Positions 6,885 through 62,996 are shown, counted from the first letter of the stretch. The stretch: DNA of 64,000 bases from an uncultured Hyphomicrobiales bacterium (GCA_964634885.1 CAZWLN010000001.1:135932-199931); one strand, 5' to 3'. Notes: a model not told the origin generated them from the sequence alone. A program made the numbers and translations.

Positions 6885-8993
6885 ATGCGAAGAATTTTGT
6901 TATTATTGCTATTATCAAGCAGCAGCCTGTGTGCACAGTCACTCTTCGTTTTCAACCCGGACACCACCGGATTTCCTGTAATGAAAGCGAATTTCTATGC
7001 TTATGACAGTACGGGTAAACAGGCCTTAAATCCGGGGACATCAGACTTTAAGGTTACCGAGAACGGAGAAGACAGAAGAGTGTTAAGTGTGAGCTGCCCT
7101 TTGCCAAAGCAACCTGTGAATGTTTCAGTGGCAATGAGTATTGATGTCTCCGGCTCGATGGCCGCGAATATTATTCCTATACCTGTTGAACTTGGGAAAA
7201 CAACAGCGACGGATCTGTGTAACATGGTAGCAATGCCACCGTCGGAATTTGCTTTACAAAAATGCGATGACATTGCTGTGATAATGCGTGATTTTACAAC
7301 TGACAGAAGCAAAATAATAAATGAAATTAATAAAATTACTGCTTCAGGCGATAATGATTTTGTTGAACAGTTGCTCAATGACAGGACGGGGTTGCTTAAT
7401 ATTGTAAAAACCGGAAATAACAAACGTATTGCCGTCCTGTACACCGACGCCTGGTGGTATTCCCTGACTGAGCCAGAATTACAAAGATGTATTGATACTT
7501 GTAAAAAATATGATATAAAATTTTATGCGATCATATATTCAAGGCCAGAAGCAATGCCCGATGGTATCAAATCATCTCTTAATAAATTAGCGGAGGCTAC
7601 CAGAGGAAAACTCTATGATGGTATAACAAGTCTGAAACAAGCTTCTGAATTGGCTGAAATATTACAGAAAGAGACACAGGACATCGATGCCTGTACGATT
7701 GAATGGGAATCCGAATATTCCTGCAAATCCAAAATAAATGACGTGGAGGTTAAACTACTTACTACAGGTAATGTGTCAAAACTTTCCTATCAATCGCCCA
7801 AAAATTCGCTAATGAAACTTGAATTCAATCCCGTAATAGTTTCTTTTCTAAATACATTAAAAGATACATGCACTACTGTTACTGTAACAGCACGCAATGC
7901 GGATTTCACTGTAACCAATATTACGCTGTCGAATCCATCATACAGAATCGAAGAGCCGACAAGCTTTACCCTGAAAGACGGGGAGAGCCGGAACCTGCAG
8001 GTATGCTACACGCCCCCCGACAGCGGTTACAGCTTTTGCCAGTTTACGTTTGTGAATGATCAATGTCCTGCGAACTACTATGCCAGAGGCGGTTTCAAGA
8101 ATAAGAAACCATCTATTAAAACAATAAAGTTAATCCATCCCAACGGTGCCGAAGTGTTTTTAGCGGGCAACGATACGGTAATTACCTGGGAAGGTGTGTT
8201 GCCCGAGGAGCCGGTCACAATTGAATACAGCACAGATCGGGGCTTAAACTGGAAATTAATTGCTCAAAATGCAACAGGCCTCAGTTACAAATGGCATATA
8301 CCGAATACTCCAAGTGAACAGTGTTTAGCAAGGGTTACAGCACAGGCAGGATATAGGTATTCTGATTTTCCAGAGGTTAAGATTTGTAATCAGATATGGA
8401 TGGGCATAAACCTCGATGTGGAGTGTTACAGGAATGGGGATACCATTCGTCATGCTGCAACCAATGATGAATGGAAGGATGCAAATGCAAAACAGGAAGG
8501 CGCCTGGTGCTACTTTAACAATGACCCTGTAAACGGGGAAATTTATGGAAAACTATATAATGGCTATGCCGTTAGCGACCCGAGGGGCCTGGCGCCTGTT
8601 GGTTGGCATATTGCAAGTGATATTGAATGGATTGAATTGGAAATGTGCCTCGGTATGTCGAAGGAAGAAGCTGAAAAATTCGATAAACGGGGAACAGTTC
8701 AGGGTGGCAAGCTCAAGTCCACTGGTACGATCGAAGAAGGGGACGGGCTGTGGAAATATCCTAATAACGGAGCAACGAATGAAACTGGGTTTTCATGTTT
8801 ACCAGCCGGGTCCCGTGATGGTATTGGAAAATTTTATTACATAGGTATTATGTCAATTATTTGGACATCAACGTCCCCCTCATGGAATTTCTCCTACTTA
8901 TGTTTTAGAAAATTTCAATACGATTATGTAACAATCGTAAGAAACCTTTATGATAAAAGTGACGGCTTTTCTGTCCGCTGTGTCAGGGATTAG
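6885..8993 (+). CDS. Secreted VWA-domain protein with C-terminal Fibrobacter-succinogenes-major-paralogous-like (TIGR02145-type) domain
   Basis: Signal peptide MRRILLLLLLSSSSLCAQS. MIDAS-like SIDVSGSM. The middle beta-sandwich block (IHPNGAEV...ITWEG...IEYSTDRGLNWKLIA...CLARV) is paralogous to the same block in the 2533..6768 protein. The C-terminus (GKLYNGYAV...GWHIASDIEW...GGKLKSTG...GFSCLPAG.R...GFSVRCVRD) matches the Fib_succ_major pattern. Confidence 0.65.
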   Translation: MRRILLLLLLSSSSLCAQSLFVFNPDTTGFPVMKANFYAYDSTGKQALNPGTSDFKVTENGEDRRVLSVSCPLPKQPVNVSVAMSIDVSGSMAANIIPIPVELGKTTATDLCNMVAMPPSEFALQKCDDIAVIMRDFTTDRSKIINEINKITASGDNDFVEQLLNDRTGLLNIVKTGNNKRIAVLYTDAWWYSLTEPELQRCIDTCKKYDIKFYAIIYSRPEAMPDGIKSSLNKLAEATRGKLYDGITSLKQASELAEILQKETQDIDACTIEWESEYSCKSKINDVEVKLLTTGNVSKLSYQSPKNSLMKLEFNPVIVSFLNTLKDTCTTVTVTARNADFTVTNITLSNPSYRIEEPTSFTLKDGESRNLQVCYTPPDSGYSFCQFTFVNDQCPANYYARGGFKNKKPSIKTIKLIHPNGAEVFLAGNDTVITWEGVLPEEPVTIEYSTDRGLNWKLIAQNATGLSYKWHIPNTPSEQCLARVTAQAGYRYSDFPEVKICNQIWMGINLDVECYRNGDTIRHAATNDEWKDANAKQEGAWCYFNNDPVNGEIYGKLYNGYAVSDPRGLAPVGWHIASDIEWIELEMCLGMSKEEAEKFDKRGTVQGGKLKSTGTIEEGDGLWKYPNNGATNETGFSCLPAGSRDGIGKFYYIGIMSIIWTSTSPSWNFSYLCFRKFQYDYVTIVRNLYDKSDGFSVRCVRD

Positions 8994-13440: not shown

Positions 13441-14637
13441 ATGGAAAAGACACAGAATTACATCATTTTACAAAATGGTTATACTCTATCCTACGATGAA
13501 ACTCAATGTTATGAGAATGATAAAGAGTATCAAAGTAATGATAGTGATAAAAGAGAACCCAATGAGATAATTAAAGAATTAAAGCATAAATTCTATAATG
13601 CTTTTTTTAAGAAACATTTTAGAAATCTTATTTTCCTTACTGCAGCTGGAACATCTCTAAATAATGGAGAAAACAGTGGTAAAACAAGAGAAGACCTTTG
13701 GAATGAATGCAAAGATGAAATTTCTTCATTAGAAAAAAAGGATAAGAATGTATCATCAAAACCTTTTTTTATAGAGAAAGATATTGAGGGGTTATTATCA
13801 TATATCATTCTCTATGAAAAAATTCATGGAGATTTGATAATTAATAAAAATGAATTATTAAAAGCAAAAATAGAAAAAAAAATATCTGAAACATGTAAAT
13901 TGGTACTTTCTGAAACTGCACCTCATAAAGAATTTCTTAATAAAATTACAGCAAGGAAGCCAAGTGAGCCAAGGATAAAACTATTTACAACAAATTACGA
14001 TACATTATTTGAACAGGCTGCCAATGAAGCAGGTTTTATTATTATTGATGGTTTTTCTTATACACAGCCTAGAAGGTTTTCTGGAAGGTATTTTGATATT
14101 GATATTGTAAACCGAGAAAAAACAAGAATCAAACAGGAAGAAAGTTTTCTTTCTAAAGTATTCCATTTGTATAAATTACATGGTTCTGTAAATTGGACAA
14201 AAGAAAATAACACAATATTGTTAAAAGAAAACCCAACAAATCCACTAATCATCTATCCGGCATCTGAAAAATATGAAAGTTCATATGAACAACCCTACTT
14301 CGAGATGATGTCGAGATTTCAATCATCCCTCAGACAAGAAAATACATTATTAATAGTTATTGGTTTTGGTTTTAAAGACAAACATATTCAAAATGTAATT
14401 ATAGAAGCTGTGGAACAAAATCCAAGTTTTCAACTTGTGATAATAAATTATAGTAATAGTAATAGTATTCAGACAACCAATTTAGAATCATTTTTTCTTA
14501 ATGTAGATGCAATGAAAGTCAAAAGAAATGTGACCATAATATTTGATAACTTTAGTGGATTTGTCGATAATTATCCATCAAATCTAACATATATTGAACA
14601 ACAAAAGGATAACAATAATGAATCCATTCAGCCATAA
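13441..14637 (+). CDS. SIR2-like (SIR2_2 family) protein, probable NADase effector of a SIR2-HerA defence pair
   Basis: Motifs IFLTAAGTS, KLFTTNYDTLFEQA and LYKLHGSVNW are characteristic of defence-associated SIR2 domains. The gene is very AT-rich. Confidence 0.7.
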   Translation: MEKTQNYIILQNGYTLSYDETQCYENDKEYQSNDSDKREPNEIIKELKHKFYNAFFKKHFRNLIFLTAAGTSLNNGENSGKTREDLWNECKDEISSLEKKDKNVSSKPFFIEKDIEGLLSYIILYEKIHGDLIINKNELLKAKIEKKISETCKLVLSETAPHKEFLNKITARKPSEPRIKLFTTNYDTLFEQAANEAGFIIIDGFSYTQPRRFSGRYFDIDIVNREKTRIKQEESFLSKVFHLYKLHGSVNWTKENNTILLKENPTNPLIIYPASEKYESSYEQPYFEMMSRFQSSLRQENTLLIVIGFGFKDKHIQNVIIEAVEQNPSFQLVIINYSNSNSIQTTNLESFFLNVDAMKVKRNVTIIFDNFSGFVDNYPSNLTYIEQQKDNNNESIQP

Positions 14638-16375
14638 TTACTTTTTAGGATATATCAATGAAGTCACTCCACAGTATGTAAAAATACACTTCCCATCTTC
14701 AGGTTTATTAGACAAATTTTGTCATGAAGGTAATGATTACTCAGGTGGAAAAGTTGGAAATTTTGTAGTAATCGAAGGAGAAGAATATGGTTTTTTGGCT
14801 AGAATCTTAGAAATCAACCTTCCTGACAGTGAGAAAAAAGAAATAAATGAAAAAGCAATTCAACATGATGAAACAACATTTCACCCTTCTGGTAAAGCTG
14901 AACTTTTATTATGCTTCAGCGTATATGACCCCCAAAAAGCTATGAAAACAGTATCAAAGTATCCTACAATAGGCGCAAAAGTATATTCTTGTTCTGATGA
15001 ACAAATTGCTGAATATGTAAAACAATTTGGAAAAAATGAAAAAGAAATTGATAATATATACGGTGAGTTAGGAAAACTGACTTCTAACAATGCTATTTGT
15101 AGAATTTCATTAAATTCTCTATTCGGAAGACATTGTGCCGTTGTTGGAACAACTGGAGGAGGTAAAAGTTGGACAATCGCAAAATTAATTGAAGAGATTA
15201 CAAAAGTAACTGATAATAAAGTTATACTAATTGATGCAACAGGTGAGTATAGCAAATTAGAGACTAAGTCCTTAACTTTAGGTAAGGATACGTTTTTCCC
15301 ATATCAAAAATTAACCATACCAGACCTATTTTTTCTGTTACGTCCTACGGGTCAATCTCAGAGGCCAATATTATTAGAAGCTATAAGATCATTAAAAATG
15401 AGAAGGCTTTTAAATATTAATTTACAAGATGATGAATCAATACTAAAAAAAGCTAAACAACAAAAACAACGTATATTAAAATTTTATCAAGATAAAATAA
15501 AAGAAATTGAGGATAATTCTTGTAATTTTGACATTAACTTTCTTATTTCTCAAATTTTTGAGGAATGTGTCTATCAAAATGGTTTTAATGATACAAACTC
15601 TTGGGGTGATTATGATAGGAAAACATATGACTACCAGACAACACTTATAAATAGAATTACTGATCTTATTAATAATAAGATATTTAATAGTCTTTTAGGC
15701 TTTACTGAAATTCCTTGCAATAATACATCTATTATTGAACAGATAGAAGAATTTGTTTCAAATAAAAAAGGAAATGTAAAAGTATTGAGACTGAATTTTG
15801 AGAATATCCCCTCTTTATATTCAGTTAAAGAAATAATCTCAAATGCTATTGCATCGTTCCTTTTAAATGAAGCCAGGCAAACAAGATTTAAAGAGTCACC
15901 TATAATTTTAATATTAGATGAAGCTCATCAGTTTTTAAATAAAAGTGTGAAAGATGAGTTTTTTGATAGTAACACATTGGATTCTTTTGATTTAATAGCG
16001 AAAGAATGCCGCAAATATGGGCTTTTTTTATGTCTAGCTACTCAGATGCCCCGTGATATACCTATTGGGACTTTAAGCCAGATGGGTACATTTATTGTTC
16101 ACAGACTAATCAACGAACAAGATAAGAAGGCAATAGAAAATGCTGCTTCATCTGCTAATAGAAGTGCTTTGTCATTTTTACCAATTTTAGGAGAGGGTGA
16201 AGCATTACTTATTGGTGTTGATCTCCCAATGCCTTTACTAATAAAGATACATGAACCAACGATAAAACCAGAGTCCAATACACCGAGGTTAAAAAAAAGG
16301 GCTGATCAGGAAATGAATAACAATGTGGATCAAAAAATAAAAGAACTATTCGGGGCAGTACCTTTAAACATGTAA
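14594..16375 (+). CDS. herA: HerA-like FtsK/HerA-superfamily ATPase (SIR2-HerA partner)
   Basis: Walker A VVGTTGGGKSWT. Walker B ILILDEAHQF. About 590 aa. Overlaps the SIR2 gene (an alternative ATG at 14618 gives a 20-nt overlap). Confidence 0.75.
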   Translation: MNNKRITIMNPFSHNYFLGYINEVTPQYVKIHFPSSGLLDKFCHEGNDYSGGKVGNFVVIEGEEYGFLARILEINLPDSEKKEINEKAIQHDETTFHPSGKAELLLCFSVYDPQKAMKTVSKYPTIGAKVYSCSDEQIAEYVKQFGKNEKEIDNIYGELGKLTSNNAICRISLNSLFGRHCAVVGTTGGGKSWTIAKLIEEITKVTDNKVILIDATGEYSKLETKSLTLGKDTFFPYQKLTIPDLFFLLRPTGQSQRPILLEAIRSLKMRRLLNINLQDDESILKKAKQQKQRILKFYQDKIKEIEDNSCNFDINFLISQIFEECVYQNGFNDTNSWGDYDRKTYDYQTTLINRITDLINNKIFNSLLGFTEIPCNNTSIIEQIEEFVSNKKGNVKVLRLNFENIPSLYSVKEIISNAIASFLLNEARQTRFKESPIILILDEAHQFLNKSVKDEFFDSNTLDSFDLIAKECRKYGLFLCLATQMPRDIPIGTLSQMGTFIVHRLINEQDKKAIENAASSANRSALSFLPILGEGEALLIGVDLPMPLLIKIHEPTIKPESNTPRLKKRADQEMNNNVDQKIKELFGAVPLNM

Positions 16376-16672
16376 AAATCAATGAAAGATATTAAACAAA
16401 CATAATTAAATTGAATGTACAAGTATAGATATTGAAATCATATACTACTAAAGATATTCAATTCATTATATTATATATACAATTATTCTAATTGTTTGAA
16501 TTATTTATGTTTATTTCACGAAGTGGAATTTTCACTGTATATATTAATCAAATTTAATTCATATATAGTAGCGGTAGATTAAGGATAATTTCTTAATTTT
16601 AAGTTTTTGTTTTGATATTTTCCGGAAAATGTTTGCCGGAGTGATAAAGATTGTTGAATTGATGGGGTGATT

Positions 16673-18595
16673 ATGTCGGAATTCTTGTTTAAACCATTTG
16701 AAGAAATGACTGAGAAGGATTATGCCGAAGTGGGATTTATGTCGGGCCTGGAAATACACCAGCAGTTGTTTACGGACAGGAAATTGTTCTGCCGCTGCCC
16801 TGCCGGCCACTACAGCGACGAATACCATGCGGAAATCCTTCGCCACATGAGGCCTACGCTCTCCGAACTGGGTGAATATGACGGTACGGCCTTGATGGAA
16901 TTTAAAACCAAAAAAGATATTATTTACAGAATAAACAGGAATACTGTTTGCACTTACGAGATGGACGACACACCGCCTTTCGAGATGAACGAAGACGCTC
17001 TGGACATAGGCATAGAAGTGGGTATGCTCCTCAACGCCAAAATCGTCGATGAGATACACATCGCCCGTAAGCAATACCTCGACGGCAGCATCCCGACAGG
17101 CTTCCAGAGAACCGCCATCATCAGTGTCGGCGGCTGGATACCGTTCAAAGACAGGAAGATCAACATCATACAGATGTCCATCGAAGAAGACTCCTGCCGC
17201 GAATACAGCGACAAAGGGCACACAAGGATTTACCTGACAGACAGGCTCGGAATGCCGCTTATCGAAACGGTTACCCATCCTGACATGAAAACTCCCCAGG
17301 AAGTTGCAGAAGTCAACGACATACTACGCAGGCTGTCACGCAGCACAGGCAAAGTAAGAACCGGCGTGGGCGCCACCCGCCAGGACGTTAACGTAAGCGT
17401 CAGGGGAGGCACCAGGATTGAGATCAAAGGCGTGCCAAGCATAAAGAGAATACCTTTACTTACATACAACGAAGCAATGAGGCAGTGGAACCTCCTAAGG
17501 CTCAGAACCGAAATGCACAACAGGGGCATCACCGAAACCACCTTCGAACACAAAGTGGACGAAGTGACAAACCTCCTGAAGAAAACCCACTACCAGCCCA
17601 TCGCCGACGCCATAGGCCAGGGTAAGAGAGTACTTGCCGTAACACTGCGCAAATGCAAAGGCCTCCTGAGATGGCAAACACAGACAGACACTACCTTCGC
17701 TAAAGAGATATCCGACAGGGTACGCGTCATTGCCTGCCTCACCGACCTGCCAAACATTACCCACTCCGACTATCCCGGCGAAACAATTTCCTCGGCAGAC
17801 GGCAGCAGGATCAGGCAGAAAGTCGGAGCCGGCAAAGACGACGCTTTGGTACTCGTATGGGGCAGCGAACAGGATACGGAATGTGCAGCCCGCGAGATCG
17901 CCATCCGCGTAAAAGAAGCCACAATCGGCGTTCCTTCGGAAACACGCCAGGCTCTCTCAGACGGAACCAACGGATTCGAGAGGATTCTCCCAGGTCCCGA
18001 GAGGATGTATCCCGACACTGACCTTCCTCCGAAGAAGCTCTCAGACGAGCGTAAGGAAGCCATCAGGAAAGGCCTGCCCGAACAAATATGGAGAAGAGAA
18101 GGCTGGTACCGCGAGATCGGCGTACATGAGGATTTCATCAAAGAACTGGCAAAATCTAAGTTCGCCCCTACTTTCGAAAAATTGGTCAAGGACTGGGACA
18201 TCGACCCCAAACTGCTGTCCTTCGTCCTGATACCTTACATGAAACGACTTAAGAAAAAGAAGATTGATATTAATTTGTTGAGCGATGAGATCATACTTAA
18301 GATCTTCGACGCCTATCGCACCAAAAAAATCATCAGGGAAGGCATCTTCGTTGCAGTGGAGAAATCGCTGAACCAAGGCAAATTTACTAAGGAAGTTCTT
18401 CCTAAGCCCGTCAACCTCGACGATATTAAAGACTTCGCAAAGAAAAGCCTTACAGAAGTAAAGAAGATGACTCTTTACTATCCTGACAACCTTCAGAAGA
18501 TACTTATGGGTGTGGTAATGAACAAATACCGCGGGAAGATCAGCGGCGCAGAAACAATAAAATATGTCGAAGAATTAGCTCAACAGGAGGGATAA
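16673..18595 (+). CDS. gatE: Glutamyl-tRNA(Gln) amidotransferase subunit E (archaeal-type GatE)
   Basis: GLEIHQQL...KLFCRCP N-terminal GatB/E signature. About 640 aa, the length of GatE with its insertion domain rather than the ~480 aa of GatB. ATG at 16673 is preceded by a GGGGTG RBS (the track start at 16667 is GTG). Confidence 0.75.
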   Translation: MSEFLFKPFEEMTEKDYAEVGFMSGLEIHQQLFTDRKLFCRCPAGHYSDEYHAEILRHMRPTLSELGEYDGTALMEFKTKKDIIYRINRNTVCTYEMDDTPPFEMNEDALDIGIEVGMLLNAKIVDEIHIARKQYLDGSIPTGFQRTAIISVGGWIPFKDRKINIIQMSIEEDSCREYSDKGHTRIYLTDRLGMPLIETVTHPDMKTPQEVAEVNDILRRLSRSTGKVRTGVGATRQDVNVSVRGGTRIEIKGVPSIKRIPLLTYNEAMRQWNLLRLRTEMHNRGITETTFEHKVDEVTNLLKKTHYQPIADAIGQGKRVLAVTLRKCKGLLRWQTQTDTTFAKEISDRVRVIACLTDLPNITHSDYPGETISSADGSRIRQKVGAGKDDALVLVWGSEQDTECAAREIAIRVKEATIGVPSETRQALSDGTNGFERILPGPERMYPDTDLPPKKLSDERKEAIRKGLPEQIWRREGWYREIGVHEDFIKELAKSKFAPTFEKLVKDWDIDPKLLSFVLIPYMKRLKKKKIDINLLSDEIILKIFDAYRTKKIIREGIFVAVEKSLNQGKFTKEVLPKPVNLDDIKDFAKKSLTEVKKMTLYYPDNLQKILMGVVMNKYRGKISGAETIKYVEELAQQEG

Positions 18596-19983
18596 TGGCA
18601 CAGAACGAAGACTATAAAGGCTACCGCGGCCAAACGCTCGAGGTACTGCAAAAATACGAAGCAATGATCTGGAGCGATGTTGAAATTGAAACCACAGACG
18701 GCGACTTCATCGGGAAAATACTGCCCAGGTCTGAAAACGCCGACGATAAACATATTGTACTTAAGCTCATCACCGGTTACAACATCGGCATTGCCTCTGC
18801 CAAAGTACAAAACATGAAGATTCTTGGCCGCAAGATCATCAACTATAAAATTCCTGAAAAGGCTTTCCCGTACGATCCGAAGAAACCGAGAGTCAAGCTC
18901 TTCGGTACCGGCGGCACCATCGCCAGCCGTCTCGATTACCGTACCGGCGCAGTCATTCCGGCCTTCTCGCCAGGCGAACTGTACGGTTCGGTTCCTGAAC
19001 TGGCAGACGTCTGCAACTTGGAAACAGATAAGCTTTTCGGTGTTTTCAGCGAGAACATGGGCCCCGAGCAGTACAAGATCTGCGCTGAGAGAATCGGCGA
19101 AGAGATTGAAAAGGGTGTAAAAGGCATAGTCATCGGGCACGGTACCGACACAATGCACCACACTTCGGCCATCCTGTCGTTCATGGTACAGAATTCACCT
19201 GTACCGATTGTAATGGTAGGTTCACAGCGTTCCAGCGACAGGCCTTCGTCAGACGCAGCGCTTAACCTGATCCACAGCGTTAAGACAGCCGCCGAGAGCG
19301 ACATCGCCGAGGTAATGGTCTGTATGTTCGGCCCCACATCCGACACTTACGGCCTGCTTCACAGAGGCACACGCGTACGTAAGATGCACTCCAGTTACAG
19401 GTCAACCTTCAGGACCATCGGCGACATTCCCCTTGCCATGGTCAACAGGGACAAGATTACTCCGCTGCGCAGCGACTACAAAAAGAGAAGGAACGACAAG
19501 AACGTTACAATCAACACCGCCTTCGAAGAGATGGTAACAATACTCTATTACTATCCCAACATGAGGCCGGACCTGATCTACTCGCTCATCGACAACGGCT
19601 ACAAAGGCATAGTAATTGCCGGCACAGGCCTGGGCCATGTCAACAAACCGCTCTACCCGGCGCTGAAACGCTGCCAGGAAGCCGGCGTTGCCGTTTACAT
19701 GACCGTACAGACCCTCTGGGGCTATGTACAGATGTACGTTTACGAGACAGGCAGGGAGATGATGGACCTTGGAGTCATTCCTCTCGCCAACGTCCTTCCC
19801 GAAGTAGCTTATGTTAAACTCGGCTGGGCTATGGGACAAACCAACGACCTCGACGAAGTAAAGAAGATTATGCTCACTCCCGTTAACGGCGAGCTTACCG
19901 ACAGGGAACCCAGCAACGGCTACCTGATCTACCAGGGCGGCATTCCCGAGGTAGAAGAGTTCATCTCGCAGTACAGGAAGTAA
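18595..19983 (+). CDS. gatD: Glutamyl-tRNA(Gln) amidotransferase subunit D (archaeal-type GatD, asparaginase-like)
   Basis: N-terminal GatD-specific domain followed by an asparaginase fold. LFGTGGTIAS and GIVIGHGTDTM motifs. Start overlaps the gatE stop (TAATG). Confidence 0.75.
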   Translation: MAQNEDYKGYRGQTLEVLQKYEAMIWSDVEIETTDGDFIGKILPRSENADDKHIVLKLITGYNIGIASAKVQNMKILGRKIINYKIPEKAFPYDPKKPRVKLFGTGGTIASRLDYRTGAVIPAFSPGELYGSVPELADVCNLETDKLFGVFSENMGPEQYKICAERIGEEIEKGVKGIVIGHGTDTMHHTSAILSFMVQNSPVPIVMVGSQRSSDRPSSDAALNLIHSVKTAAESDIAEVMVCMFGPTSDTYGLLHRGTRVRKMHSSYRSTFRTIGDIPLAMVNRDKITPLRSDYKKRRNDKNVTINTAFEEMVTILYYYPNMRPDLIYSLIDNGYKGIVIAGTGLGHVNKPLYPALKRCQEAGVAVYMTVQTLWGYVQMYVYETGREMMDLGVIPLANVLPEVAYVKLGWAMGQTNDLDEVKKIMLTPVNGELTDREPSNGYLIYQGGIPEVEEFISQYRK

Positions 19984-30862: not shown

Positions 30863-31049
30863 AGTTCATTCTTTATGTCAATTATACATAACTTCCAAAA
30901 ACTGTTTTTTACCGGTGGATTACACTTCCACTACATATGTAAGACGCAAATCCATCGATTAAGACTCATCAAAAACATAATTATTTGAATATTTTCTGAA
31001 CCATAATTCATAATTTTGCAATTATTATTAATGTAATGTAGAAGAGAAT

Positions 31050-32414
31050 ATGTCATTAGTTAGGTCAATATCAGGTTTGAGAGGTACTTTGGGCGACAGC
31101 CTGACACCTGAATTAGTTGCAGCTTACACTGCTTCGTTTTCTTCCATTATGCCCTCCGGGCCGATTGTTGTCGGCAGAGACGGACGCCCTTCCGGAGCAT
31201 GGATGGAACAAATTGTTGCAGGGACTCTTGCCGCTTGCGGCAGGAAAGTGAAAATAGCGGGAATAGTTCCGACTCCGACGGTACAAATGCTTTCGGAACA
31301 TACGGACGCTGCCGGCGGCATTGCCATCACTGCTTCCCACAACCCAAAAGAATGGAACGGGCTGAAGTTTATGGACAGCGACGGTGTATTCCTCGACAAA
31401 ACTGAGAACGAAAGGCTCTGGGACTGTGTCGATAAGAAATTATATACATTTGAAGACTGTACTCTGCTGGAACCGGAATACCTGAGCGACAGGGCTTTCG
31501 ATTTCCACATCGATGCCATCCTCGGCCTGCCCTATATTTCAGATAACCTTAATGCTGTTGTTGACAGGAAATACAGAGTTGTCCTCGACGCCGTCAACGC
31601 TTCAGGTTCGAGAATAGTGCCGCGCCTGCTCGAGGAATTCGGCTGTGAAGTAATACCCCTGTTTTGCGATGAATCGGGTATCTTCCCTCATACACCCGAA
31701 CCATTGCCTGAGAACCTGGACCTACTTGCCCGGAAAGTAATCGAAAGCAAAGCAGACCTGGGAATCGCCGTCGATCCCGACGCCGACAGGCTCGTATTAA
31801 TCGACGGGACAGGAAAACCGATTGGCGAGGAGAAAACCGTGGTCATCGCTATCGACAGTGTCCTCTCCAATATCAGCCATTTCAGGAACTACAATTACTC
31901 CGGTGTCGTCGTCAATCTCAGCACTACGAGGCTGGCACGGGACGTAGCGGAAAAACACGGCGCTGCTTTCAACCTGGCTCCTGTCGGTGAGATTAACGTT
32001 GTAAGGCAGATGAAACAAAAGAAAGCAATCATCGGCGGGGAAGGCAGCGGGGGAGTAATTTTCCCTGTTTGCCACTACGGCAGGGACTCACTCGTCGGCA
32101 TTTCACTCGTCCTTACCTTCCTTGCAACCAAGGGAATCTCACTGGAAAAACTGAACAGCGAATACAAGAACTATGTAATTGTGAAAAAGAAATTTCCCAG
32201 GAATAGTCCCATGGATGCTATCATCGACAGGGTCCGCTCCAGGTATTCACAGGAAGAAGTAAATACTGACGACGGTATAAGGGTTGATTTCAGCGATTCC
32301 TGGGTGCAGGTACGGGCTTCGAACACCGAGCCGATAATCAGGATCATTGCCGAAGCGCCTACTAAAGAACAGGCTGAAGAGCTTATAGATAATGTAAAAG
32401 AGCTGTGTTTTTAA
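31050..32414 (+). CDS. glmM: Phosphoglucosamine mutase (phosphohexomutase family, Bacteroidetes-type N-terminus)
   Basis: SISGLRGTLG start. Active-site TASHNPKEWNG. Metal site GIAVDPDADRL. GGEGSGG sugar-phosphate loop. Confidence 0.7.
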   Translation: MSLVRSISGLRGTLGDSLTPELVAAYTASFSSIMPSGPIVVGRDGRPSGAWMEQIVAGTLAACGRKVKIAGIVPTPTVQMLSEHTDAAGGIAITASHNPKEWNGLKFMDSDGVFLDKTENERLWDCVDKKLYTFEDCTLLEPEYLSDRAFDFHIDAILGLPYISDNLNAVVDRKYRVVLDAVNASGSRIVPRLLEEFGCEVIPLFCDESGIFPHTPEPLPENLDLLARKVIESKADLGIAVDPDADRLVLIDGTGKPIGEEKTVVIAIDSVLSNISHFRNYNYSGVVVNLSTTRLARDVAEKHGAAFNLAPVGEINVVRQMKQKKAIIGGEGSGGVIFPVCHYGRDSLVGISLVLTFLATKGISLEKLNSEYKNYVIVKKKFPRNSPMDAIIDRVRSRYSQEEVNTDDGIRVDFSDSWVQVRASNTEPIIRIIAEAPTKEQAEELIDNVKELCF

Positions 32415-48407: not shown

Positions 48408-48535
48408 TTCTTAATTATACAAAATATAAATGGCAAAGTTAATAAAATAAATGCTATTATTTACAAAAGAAAAAAGACATAACAGCATATATTAATGATA
48501 AAGAGGAATAAAATGAATTTACAGTTACTTAAGCT

Positions 48536-49069: not shown

Positions 49070-49259
49070 TCTTTTCTCCTTACAATTTCAACTTAATGTT
49101 ATATACACTTTTGTTACTGTTTTGTTAGTAACCCGGTCAGCATAATAAATTTGCTAACAGTGATGAAAAAACGTATATTAATAAAATTTAATTAATGTAT
49201 TTTGCTTAATAATGTGAAAATTATTATTACTGAAAATTCAACGGTAATTGGGAGAATAT

Positions 49260-54624: not shown

Positions 54625-55971
54625 TTAATTCTTTTTAGCAAAGATAAAACCGCCATACTCATTAGAGTCAACGATTATTTTGTCACCGCTAACAAATTCC
54701 GAAGCTAACAATTTTAATGCCAAAGGGTCGGCGATGTGCCTCTGGATGGCTCTCTTCAAAGGCCGGGCCCCGTATTGGGAATCATAGCCAATCTTTGCAA
54801 GCCATTCGAGGGCAGCTTCTGTAAATTCAAGGCTGATGGCGCTTTTGTTGAGCCTTGCTTTAAGCATATCAAGCTGTAAACGGGCAATACTGAATATCTC
54901 GGTATTTGTCAACGGTTTAAACAGTATTATCTCATCGACGCGGTTCAGGAACTCGGGTTTCATCTTTTTACGGACCATCTCCACGATCTTCACCCTGAGG
55001 TCTGCCATTATGCCGCTCCTGTTTTCGTCGGTAATCTCACTGAGCGAATCCTGTATTATCTCAGTACCTAAATTGGAGGTCATAATTATTATTGTATTCT
55101 TAAAATTGACAACCCTGCCTTTACTGTCGGTCAACCTTCCGTCGTCCAATACCTGGAGGAGGATGCTGAAGACTTCGGGATGGGCTTTTTCGATCTCGTC
55201 GAGCAGTACGACGGAGTATGGCCTGTTCCTGACAGCCTCCGTCAACTGGCCGCCTTCTTCATATCCTACATAGCCGGGAGGAGCGCCAATCAACCTCGAC
55301 ACAGAGAATTTCTCCATGTATTCGCTCATGTCGATACGGATGAGTGAATTCTCGTCGTCGAAAAGGAATTCAGCCAGCGCTCTTGCCATCTCGGTTTTAC
55401 CTACGCCTGTAGTACCGATGAATATGAAAACACCGATTGGCCTGTTCTCATCCTGCAAACCGGCACGGCTGCGCCTGATGGCGTTGGCTACAGAAGTAAC
55501 GGCTTCATTCTGGCCGATGAGCCTCTGGTGTATGCGCTCTTCCATCCTGACAAGCTTAATCCTTTCGGATTCGAGCATCCGGCTTACCGGAATCCCGGTC
55601 CATTTGGATACGACATCGGCAATTTCATCCGCATCTATCTCTTCTTTCAGCATCTTTCCTGTCTTTTGCAATTCACGAAGCTTGTCGTTCGTGTCCTTCA
55701 TCTTTTGTTCAAGTTGGAGAATTGTCCCATATCTGATCTCAGCTACTTTTGCCAGTTCCCCTTTTCGTTCGTGTTCGTCTGCGTCGGTCTTTGCCTGCTC
55801 GATGAGTGCCTTGGTATCCCTAATCGTCCTAATCAGGTTCTTTTCCTTTTCCCAGCGTTCACTGAGCTGAGCGCTTTCTCTTTTCAGCCCTTCCAGTTCC
55901 TTTTCGATCTCGGATATTCTTTTTCTGGTTGCTTCATTATTATTTTCTTCACTCATCGCCGCCTCGTGCAT
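54625..55971 (-). CDS. Stand-alone ClpB-like AAA+ ATPase (M-domain coiled coil + NBD2 only, no N-domain or NBD1)
   Basis: Walker A GTTGVGKTE. Sensor and arginine-finger region. VVLLDEIEKAH Walker B. ClpB D2-small domain. No upstream partner ORF. Confidence 0.7.
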   Translation of the reverse strand: MHEAAMSEENNNEATRKRISEIEKELEGLKRESAQLSERWEKEKNLIRTIRDTKALIEQAKTDADEHERKGELAKVAEIRYGTILQLEQKMKDTNDKLRELQKTGKMLKEEIDADEIADVVSKWTGIPVSRMLESERIKLVRMEERIHQRLIGQNEAVTSVANAIRRSRAGLQDENRPIGVFIFIGTTGVGKTEMARALAEFLFDDENSLIRIDMSEYMEKFSVSRLIGAPPGYVGYEEGGQLTEAVRNRPYSVVLLDEIEKAHPEVFSILLQVLDDGRLTDSKGRVVNFKNTIIIMTSNLGTEIIQDSLSEITDENRSGIMADLRVKIVEMVRKKMKPEFLNRVDEIILFKPLTNTEIFSIARLQLDMLKARLNKSAISLEFTEAALEWLAKIGYDSQYGARPLKRAIQRHIADPLALKLLASEFVSGDKIIVDSNEYGGFIFAKKN

Positions 55972-62921: not shown

Positions 62922-62996
62922 AATTTTTTTCAGGAGATGAAGATTTTGTTTTGCAGAAACTGAAAAGTGTTGTAATTTTGTATTCTCTGAAAATGA

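Follow-up and report, generated by a model that had tools for sequence, protein, structure and literature searches.

The 64-kb stretch of DNA analysed here (the window; part of a 261-kb contig deposited under the name of an uncultured Hyphomicrobiales bacterium, GCA_964634885.1 CAZWLN010000001.1:135932-199931) contains two adjacent genes, gatE and gatD, that probably form a functional operon for the tRNA-dependent Glu-tRNA(Gln) amidotransferase GatDE, an enzyme of the heterodimer type, in a Kapabacteria-like bacterium. This reading is founded on sequence comparison and structure prediction. The two products are orthologous to the archaeal subunits and share their domain architecture; their catalytic motifs are intact, the genes are arranged as an operon, and the pair is strongly conserved and occurs widely in bacteria. 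By analogy with the archaeal enzymes, the bacterial GatDE would be expected to be active, and it would then be one way, and perhaps the way, in which this organism makes Gln-tRNA(Gln).

Reviews published up to 2022 describe GatDE as exclusively archaeal (PMC2811023, PMC9499178). That distribution has been used both in scenarios for LUCA, the last universal common ancestor, and to explain why the archaeal tRNA-Gln and glutaminyl-tRNA synthetase (GlnRS) never crossed between the domains (PMC2811023, PMC9499178). We found no report of a bacterial GatDE in the non-subscription literature searched. Restriction to the archaea is a descriptive trait of the GatE family and not a functional one; the advance presented here concerns the distribution and evolution of a well-understood enzyme family, not a new mechanism.

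Both proteins belong to the GatDE families

The original prediction, made from the sequence of the window, had taken the large protein for a GatE and not a GatB, on the grounds of a GatB/GatE signature and of length. Both parts of that signature, GLEIHQQL and KLFCRCP, are present, and the assignment to GatE is borne out by model scores, structural alignments and a fold search. The protein passes both NCBIfam models for GatE (NF003107, 543.6 bits with a cut-off of 456; TIGR00134 gatE_arch, 461.3 bits with a cut-off of 319.55) and fails every GatB model; for the GatB equivalog models TIGR00133 and NF004012 the best scores are 154 (cut-off 338) and 145.8 (cut-off 314.8) and cover the cradle domain only. 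Residues 12–629 align contiguously with GatE of Pyrococcus abyssi (1zq1_C) and residues 16–627 with GatE of Methanothermobacter (2d6f_C), with the insertion domain included in each case. When an AlphaFold2 model computed from a 33-sequence alignment (pLDDT 88.9, pTM 0.85) was used in a fold search, 1zq1_C and 2d6f were the best matches (E 1e-44 to 1e-49, TM(target) 0.79–0.81), with GatB structures at about 1e-24. In the same model the insertion gives weak matches to the aspartyl-tRNA synthetase (AspRS) fold, and the tail, which is all-helical, gives a weak match to the YqeY fold.

The motifs of the window GatE are GLEIH25-29, RKQY132, EED171-173, PLIE195-198, R236-D238-N240-S242, EIKG250 and RMYPDTD444. 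The cradle motifs are nearly invariant, being kept in 83–85 of the 85 bacterial GatE open reading frames (ORFs) from related loci, and the active-site residues (the His of GLEIH, RK, EED, the Glu of PLIE, R-D-N-S and E-K) are invariant in our GatE alignment (A1). In a comparison of 39 bacterial with 41 archaeal sequences, conservation reaches 95% or more at 65 positions, the active-site residues among them. The tail carries RGKISG, a motif of the GatE type RG(K/R)xxG, of which the archaeal versions are RGKADG and RGRADG.

The smaller protein passes both GatD models (NF003217, 499 bits with a cut-off of 310; TIGR02153 gatD_arch, 493 bits with a cut-off of 324). Its best matches in the PDB are 1zq1_A (E 3.7e-118) and 2d6f_A, aligned over residues 37–437 and 10–438, respectively. 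The motifs TGGTI105 (TGGT at 105–108), HGTDT (182–186), RSSD212 and VRKMH (261–265) are kept in all 62 bacterial GatD ORFs of the related loci and are identical in both crystallised GatDs; the Thr, Thr-Asp and Lys within them we take to be the asparaginase-type catalytic residues.

It is worth considering whether the pair might instead be a GatB with an unrelated insertion standing next to an ordinary type I L-asparaginase, given that the matches to the GatB models and to the type I asparaginase subfamily model TIGR00519 are significant (the latter passes, at 371.8 bits with a cut-off of 260.5), as follows from the homology of the families. Indeed, GatB of the GatCAB enzyme (3KFU, 3H0L, 3AL0, 3IP4) has a cradle and a YqeY-like tail homologous to those of GatE and performs the same kinase and transamidase chemistry on a mischarged tRNA, GatCAB being the normal bacterial solution to the problem that GatDE solves. 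However, GatB is a protein of about 480 aa that lacks the insertion domain and has the GatA amidase and GatC as partners, whereas GatE is partnered by the asparaginase-fold GatD. In the window protein the insertion aligns with that of archaeal GatE, the best GatB score of 154 compares with a cut-off of 338, and the fold search ranks GatE far above GatB. Likewise, stand-alone type I L-asparaginases have the same asparaginase fold as GatD and its catalytic Thr, Thr-Asp and Lys, but the window protein differs from them in its coupling to gatE, in scoring higher with the GatD equivalog models than with the asparaginase model, and in the GatD-type N-terminal domain that the original prediction had assigned to it, which exceeds its Pfam cut-off. 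We regard this alternative as refuted, and its probability as negligible.

The closest known systems are the archaeal GatDE enzymes of Methanothermobacter thermautotrophicus (2D6F) and P. abyssi (1ZQ1), which consist of the same two subunits. Archaeal GatE shares four parts with the window protein (cradle, AspRS-like insertion, helical region and YqeY-like tail), and archaeal GatD shares the N-terminal domain and the asparaginase fold; both subunits align over their full length, and all catalytic motifs match. In BLASTP comparisons computed on sequences transcribed from PDB alignments, the window GatE is 33–36% and GatD 45–49% identical to the crystallised archaeal enzymes, compared with 52% and 57.5% between the two archaeal enzymes themselves. 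The differences are that the host of the window pair is bacterial, that the bacterial proteins form a separate clade and that bacterial GatE has two extra conserved cysteines, Cys175 and Cys355.

Organisation of the operon

The coordinates of the genes, domains and signals, counted from the first letter of the window, are collected in Table 1. The large ORF lies where the original prediction had placed it, but the length of 642 aa given there requires a GTG start at 16667. The bacterial GatE homologues are of about 640 aa, with N-termini of the form MSEF... or MYDF..., and begin at a Met equivalent to the ATG at 16673, which is therefore the likely start and yields the shorter protein of 640 aa.

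Table 1. Features of the gatE-gatD locus in the window
Feature	Position	Strand	Evidence
AT-rich intergenic stretch 5′ of gatE, presumed promoter region	16376..16672	+	GGGG at 16664-16667 ahead of the ATG
gatE, 640 aa, kinase/transamidase subunit of Glu-tRNA(Gln) amidotransferase GatDE	16673..18595	+	NF003107, TIGR00134, PDB alignments, AlphaFold model
GatE cradle domain (catalytic domain of GatB/GatE), residues 24-459, split by the insertion	16742..18049	+	Pfam GatB_N, 167.5 bits
GatE-specific AspRS-like (GAD) insertion domain, residues ~310-400	17600..17872	+	Pfam GAD, 21.2 bits, just under the cut-off of 23.4
GatE helical/YqeY-like tail, residues 501-634	18173..18574	+	Pfam GatB_Yqey, 24.3 bits, below the cut-off of 27
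Translational coupling signal	18585..18597	+	AGGAGGG Shine-Dalgarno at 18585-18591 and TAATG overlap at 18593-18597, read from the sequence
gatD, 462 aa, glutaminase (asparaginase-fold) subunit of GatDE	18595..19983	+	NF003217, TIGR02153, PDB matches
GatD N-terminal domain, residues 28-75	18676..18819	+	Pfam PF18195 GatD_N, 42.7 bits (cut-off 25.7)
GatD asparaginase N- and C-domains, residues 99-289 and 314-426	18889..19872	+	PF00710 Asparaginase, 181.2 bits; PF17763 Asparaginase_C, 107.9 bits

The TAA of gatE (18593–18595) shares one base with the ATG of gatD (18595–18597), giving the TAATG by which the two genes had been proposed to be coupled. Together with the AGGAGGG upstream of it, which the original prediction had not included, this is the classic arrangement for translational coupling. 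The overlap of stop and start in the bacterial operon contrasts with the one archaeal locus inspected, from a Heimdallarchaeota genome, in which no gatD is adjacent to gatE. Within the presumed promoter region (16376–16672) there was no significant sigma-70-like site and no exact Bacteroidota-type TTTG...TAnnTTTG site, and scans for promoters and terminators around the operon gave results at chance level.

The operon is resident in a bacterial chromosome

The genes that flank gatE-gatD encode GreA, an extracytoplasmic function (ECF) sigma factor, proteins with type IX secretion system (T9SS) sorting domains, an OmpA-like protein, ComEC, RibBA, GlmS, CydAB and a Fibrobacter-type domain, which agrees with the bacterial context originally proposed from GreA, the sigma factor, T9SS and the OmpA-like protein. 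The nearest named relatives of the window GlmS are from metagenome-assembled genomes (MAGs) of Kapabacteria/Kapaibacteriota. The host is a bacterium, and a Kapabacteria-like one; for MAGs that come from automatic binning, several labels, "Hyphomicrobiales" among them, look unreliable.

The composition of the operon is also of interest. The GC content and the GC content at third codon positions (GC3) of gatE (0.50 and 0.61) and gatD (0.52 and 0.66) resemble those of housekeeping genes, for example glmS (0.51 and 0.62); the window mean is 0.45 and 0.52. Relatives with a GatE 66% identical to that of the window also have a GlmS that is 73% identical, a pattern expected under vertical descent within the clade. 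The junction from the gene for the HerA ATPase through gatE to gatD is the same in an independent Logan assembly. Taken together, the bacterial flanks, the host-like composition, the parallel relatedness of GlmS and GatE and the Logan junction exclude a recent import or a mis-assembly.

An archaeal fragment that was mis-assembled or mis-binned, or the decaying remnant of a recent transfer, might nonetheless come to mind because all carriers seen are MAGs and because an AT-rich foreign island lies directly upstream of gatE. Yet the operon stands in the middle of the window on a 261-kb contig, with bacterial genes on both sides and the same junction in the independent assembly; complete bacterial chromosomes carry it too, its composition resembles that of the host, and its ORFs are intact with all catalytic motifs. 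We therefore consider such an artefact refuted and very improbable.

The upstream island itself contains a gene for a SIR2 protein (PADLOC SIR2, 266 bits) followed by one for the HerA ATPase (557 bits), at 13441–16375 on the plus strand, which make up a SIR2-HerA anti-phage defence pair. Its GC content is 0.28–0.31 and its GC3 about 0.2, and the pair is also found on the Logan contig (L001).

GatDE is widespread in bacteria

The original prediction had suggested that related genomes of the Fibrobacteres–Chlorobi–Bacteroidetes (FCB) group be checked for the same pair, and the pair was found there; it is not peculiar to this genome, being one member of an extensive and conserved clade of bacterial GatDE. 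When one genome was scanned for each GTDB species, at least 597 confirmed stretches, from bacterial and archaeal species, were found to encode relatives. The best 80 of these are all from bacterial MAGs, complete chromosomes included, and their titles name Ignavibacteria, Melioribacteraceae, Kapaibacterium, Bacteroidota, Chlorobiota, Rhodothermaceae, Neomarinimicrobiota, Cloacimonetes, Phycisphaerae/Planctomycetota, Myxococcota and "Aminicenantes". With a bacterial context in the window and these 80 bacterial stretches, the GatE family is not restricted to the archaea. The complete bacterial chromosomes that carry the operon (OY820579.1, OY760517.1, OY970271.1, CP070718.1 and OW818676.1) are of 3.8–4.2 Mb. 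The 120 best GatE homologues share 62–100% identity with the window protein; every one comes from a metagenome or a MAG, and those that are named belong to Kapabacteria, Ignavibacteria, Bacteroidota or the "FCB group". The NCBI and IMG pipelines already name these bacterial homologues GatE. When 1.84 billion cluster representatives were searched exhaustively, the identity to GatE was bimodal, with about 30 clusters at 42–58% and the archaeal bulk at 32–40%. No bacterial-clade GatE was found on plasmids in PLSDB.

The association of the two genes is also conserved. In 74 of the 84 related loci, gatE has a same-strand GatD match 3′ of it, mostly within some 150 nt. Of the other 10, several end at a contig edge, and three (L068, L070 and L084) lack GatD despite having about 10 kb downstream. 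The genes that flank the operon are not syntenic between lineages. Across the bacterial phyla (L005–L084) the identity to the window proteins is 70–82% for GatD and 52–70% for GatE, and GatD stays at 70–82% even where GatE falls to 52–58%. Bacterial GatD is thus far more conserved than bacterial GatE; the two euryarchaeal enzymes differ less in this respect (57.5% for GatD and 52% for GatE).

Phylogenetic position and possible origin

It is informative to examine the bacterial GatE sequences in light of archaeal GatE and GatB. The trees are neighbour-joining trees on Kimura-corrected p-distances and are a rough guide only. Bacterial and archaeal GatE were split in all 50 of 50 replicates (614 columns). 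When rooted with six GatB sequences (full-length GatB from Enterococcus, Fusobacterium and Azospirillum and three PDB fragments; 442 columns), bacterial GatE was monophyletic in 96 of 100 replicates and archaeal GatE in only 13. In a separate bootstrap run the sister of bacterial GatE was a subset of six Asgard-like sequences in 68 of 100 replicates and all archaea in 9. The archaeal anchors were Heimdall-, Thor- and Odinarchaeota, Thermoprotei and Diapherotrites, among which the Heimdall GatE is the archaeal representative most similar to the window protein (40% identity). Among the deep "bacterial" branches, membership was checked for P0130 and P0278, by a context of Mur ligases, MraZ and RsmH, and for P0134, by its name, CSSED10-310.

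The nesting of the bacterial sequences within archaeal GatE, beside those of Asgard type, favours one old transfer from archaea to bacteria, in which the donor may have been Asgard-like; the ancient horizontal transfer that had been suggested from the window sequence is thus also the reading favoured by the rooted trees. After such a transfer GatDE would have been inherited vertically in Kapabacteria and Ignavibacteria and would have spread to other phyla. A different history, in which GatDE is a vertical relic of LUCA that most bacteria have lost and no archaeal transfer took place, seems unlikely to us. The presence of GatDE in LUCA was proposed by Sheppard and Soll, a proposal taken here from its citation in PMC9499178, and such a history would fit the clean separation of bacterial from archaeal GatE in 50 of 50 replicates, the 9–13 of 100 rooted replicates that place the root between the domains, and the depth of the bacterial clade, which comprises about 30 clusters at 50% identity. 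In most rooted replicates, however, the bacteria fall inside archaeal diversity, with the Asgard-like sister in 68 of 100, and their distribution is patchy across distant phyla; moreover, the GatD identity of 70–82% between bacterial phyla, compared with 57.5% between the two euryarchaeal GatDs, suggests a later spread.

Recognition of tRNA and predicted function

The reactions that the bacterial enzyme may carry out can be described after the archaeal literature (PMC9499178, PMC2811023). A glutamyl-tRNA synthetase that also charges tRNA-Gln would produce Glu-tRNA(Gln), which GatE would bind and of which it would phosphorylate the glutamyl gamma-carboxyl in the cradle, using ATP. The GatD glutaminase would free ammonia from Gln or Asn, with which GatE would turn the activated ester into Gln-tRNA(Gln).

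Archaeal GatDE recognises tRNA-Gln by its A1-U72 pair and its D-loop (PMC9499178, PMC2811023); in archaeal GatE it is the helical and YqeY-like tail region that binds the D-loop, and a loop beside the tRNA's first base pair was assigned by Nakamura et al. (PMC2811023). In the window protein this loop has the short and basic GatE form, without the 3-10 turn of GatB. The consensus is G-K-V-K/R-R-G-L/I-G-T-I-R-Q-D in archaea and G-K-V-R-T/R-G-x-G-A-A/T-R-Q-D in bacteria.

Searches for tRNA-Gln and for GatA and GatB covered the window and the related loci. No tRNA-Gln was found in the window, which has a tRNA-Leu only, or in about 1.3 Mb of related loci, which have tRNAs for Arg, Leu and Glu only. 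Likewise, no gatA was found in about 1.4 Mb of window and related loci, where tblastn searches with Enterococcus GatA and GatB matched gatE genes only. The proteome tables of Melioribacter roseus contain AsnRS, two GlxRS and a "GatB", and Ignavibacterium album is listed as positive for both GlnRS and gatCAB (PMC3927822).

Several observations weigh against the reading of the pair as a transferred, working GatDE for the Gln route. The placement of the bacterial sequences among the archaea is only moderately supported, and long-branch effects of the outgroup are possible. No cultured isolate is among the top GatE matches, all the named bacterial ones being MAGs; with a Melioribacter-like GatE as the query, too, only MAGs came up, with I. 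album and M. roseus not among the top matches. Bacterial tRNA-Gln usually has U1-A72 in place of the A1-U72 that archaeal GatDE reads, and the one related tRNA-Gln seen, that of I. album, has U1-A72 according to the optically recognised text of a supplement. The archaeal Thr-Ile at GatE positions 234–235 is replaced by Ala-Ala or Ala-Thr across the bacterial clade, the window protein having Ala-Thr. The change in the loop is at the same time a lead: it may reflect a recognition re-tuned to the U1-A72 of bacterial tRNA-Gln.

A further question is whether the bacterial enzyme, as a true relative of GatDE, has a shifted or broadened substrate, for example by also acting on Asp-tRNA(Asn), as bacterial GatCAB does, or by performing a non-translational amidation. 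We think this improbable. The bacterial clade is indeed divergent from the characterised enzymes, at 33–36% identity for GatE and 45–49% for GatD, and it has its own substitutions in the loop that lies against the first tRNA base pair (PMC2811023); a Gln route may also exist already in related lineages, to judge from the GlnRS and gatCAB of I. album (PMC3927822), though I. album itself was not among the top GatE matches. Both proteins, on the other hand, pass the equivalog cut-offs, the whole active site is conserved, and the tail motif RG(K/R)xxG is of the GatE type and not GatB's Lys-rich motif (PMC2811023). On present evidence a functional GatDE acting on Glu-tRNA(Gln) is the reading that we prefer.

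Other features of the window

Several further observations concern the window at large. The Bacteroidota-type promoter motif TTTG-N17-23-TAnnTTTG has 10 matches in it, compared with 2.6 expected, a count not attained in any of 100 shuffles; examples lie at 30984–31018, 49121–49153 and 62950–62980 on the plus strand and at 48434–48467 on the minus strand, and several are just 5′ of genes and of the tRNA-Leu. A phosphoglucosamine mutase of 454 aa, encoded at 31050–32414 (plus strand), is a second "archaeal-type" housekeeping enzyme of the window: it passes TIGR03990 Arch_GlmM (455.3 bits with a cut-off of 439) and fails the bacterial glmM model (194.8 with a cut-off of 447.55). Of the 853 positions of the ClpB profile, an ORF of 448 aa at 54625–55971 (minus strand) matches 422–847 only, the C-terminal half, and no minus-strand ORF listed upstream of it covers the N-terminal half; its product is perhaps a ClpB-like ATPase that is truncated or has a single ring. 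Among several large secreted or T9SS-tailed proteins is one of 702 aa, encoded at 6885–8993 (plus strand), that contains a von Willebrand factor A (VWA) domain together with a Fibrobacter succinogenes major-paralogous domain (145 bits). No Rfam RNA families were found in the window.

Implications

An intact and strongly conserved gatE-gatD pair in many bacterial lineages contradicts an archaea-only distribution and makes GatDE unfit as an archaeal marker for binning or classifying metagenomic contigs. The bacterial enzymes also offer a natural experiment in how a tRNA-dependent amidotransferase adapts to a foreign set of tRNA identity elements. One can imagine, as a tentative and somewhat less than even proposition, that the whole bacterial lineage of GatDE was acquired once from an Asgard-like archaeon and now serves hundreds of uncultured species of Kapabacteria/Ignavibacteria, Marinimicrobia, Cloacimonadota, Phycisphaerae and other groups as their working, and perhaps sole, route to Gln-tRNA(Gln), where it would have replaced GatCAB, GlnRS or both, with its loop re-tuned from A1-U72 to U1-A72. 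If a single Asgard-like acquisition and a working Gln route are correct, GatDE would no longer be a signature of the archaea, and the argument that the co-evolution of GatDE with archaeal tRNA-Gln is a barrier to exchange between the domains would need revision.

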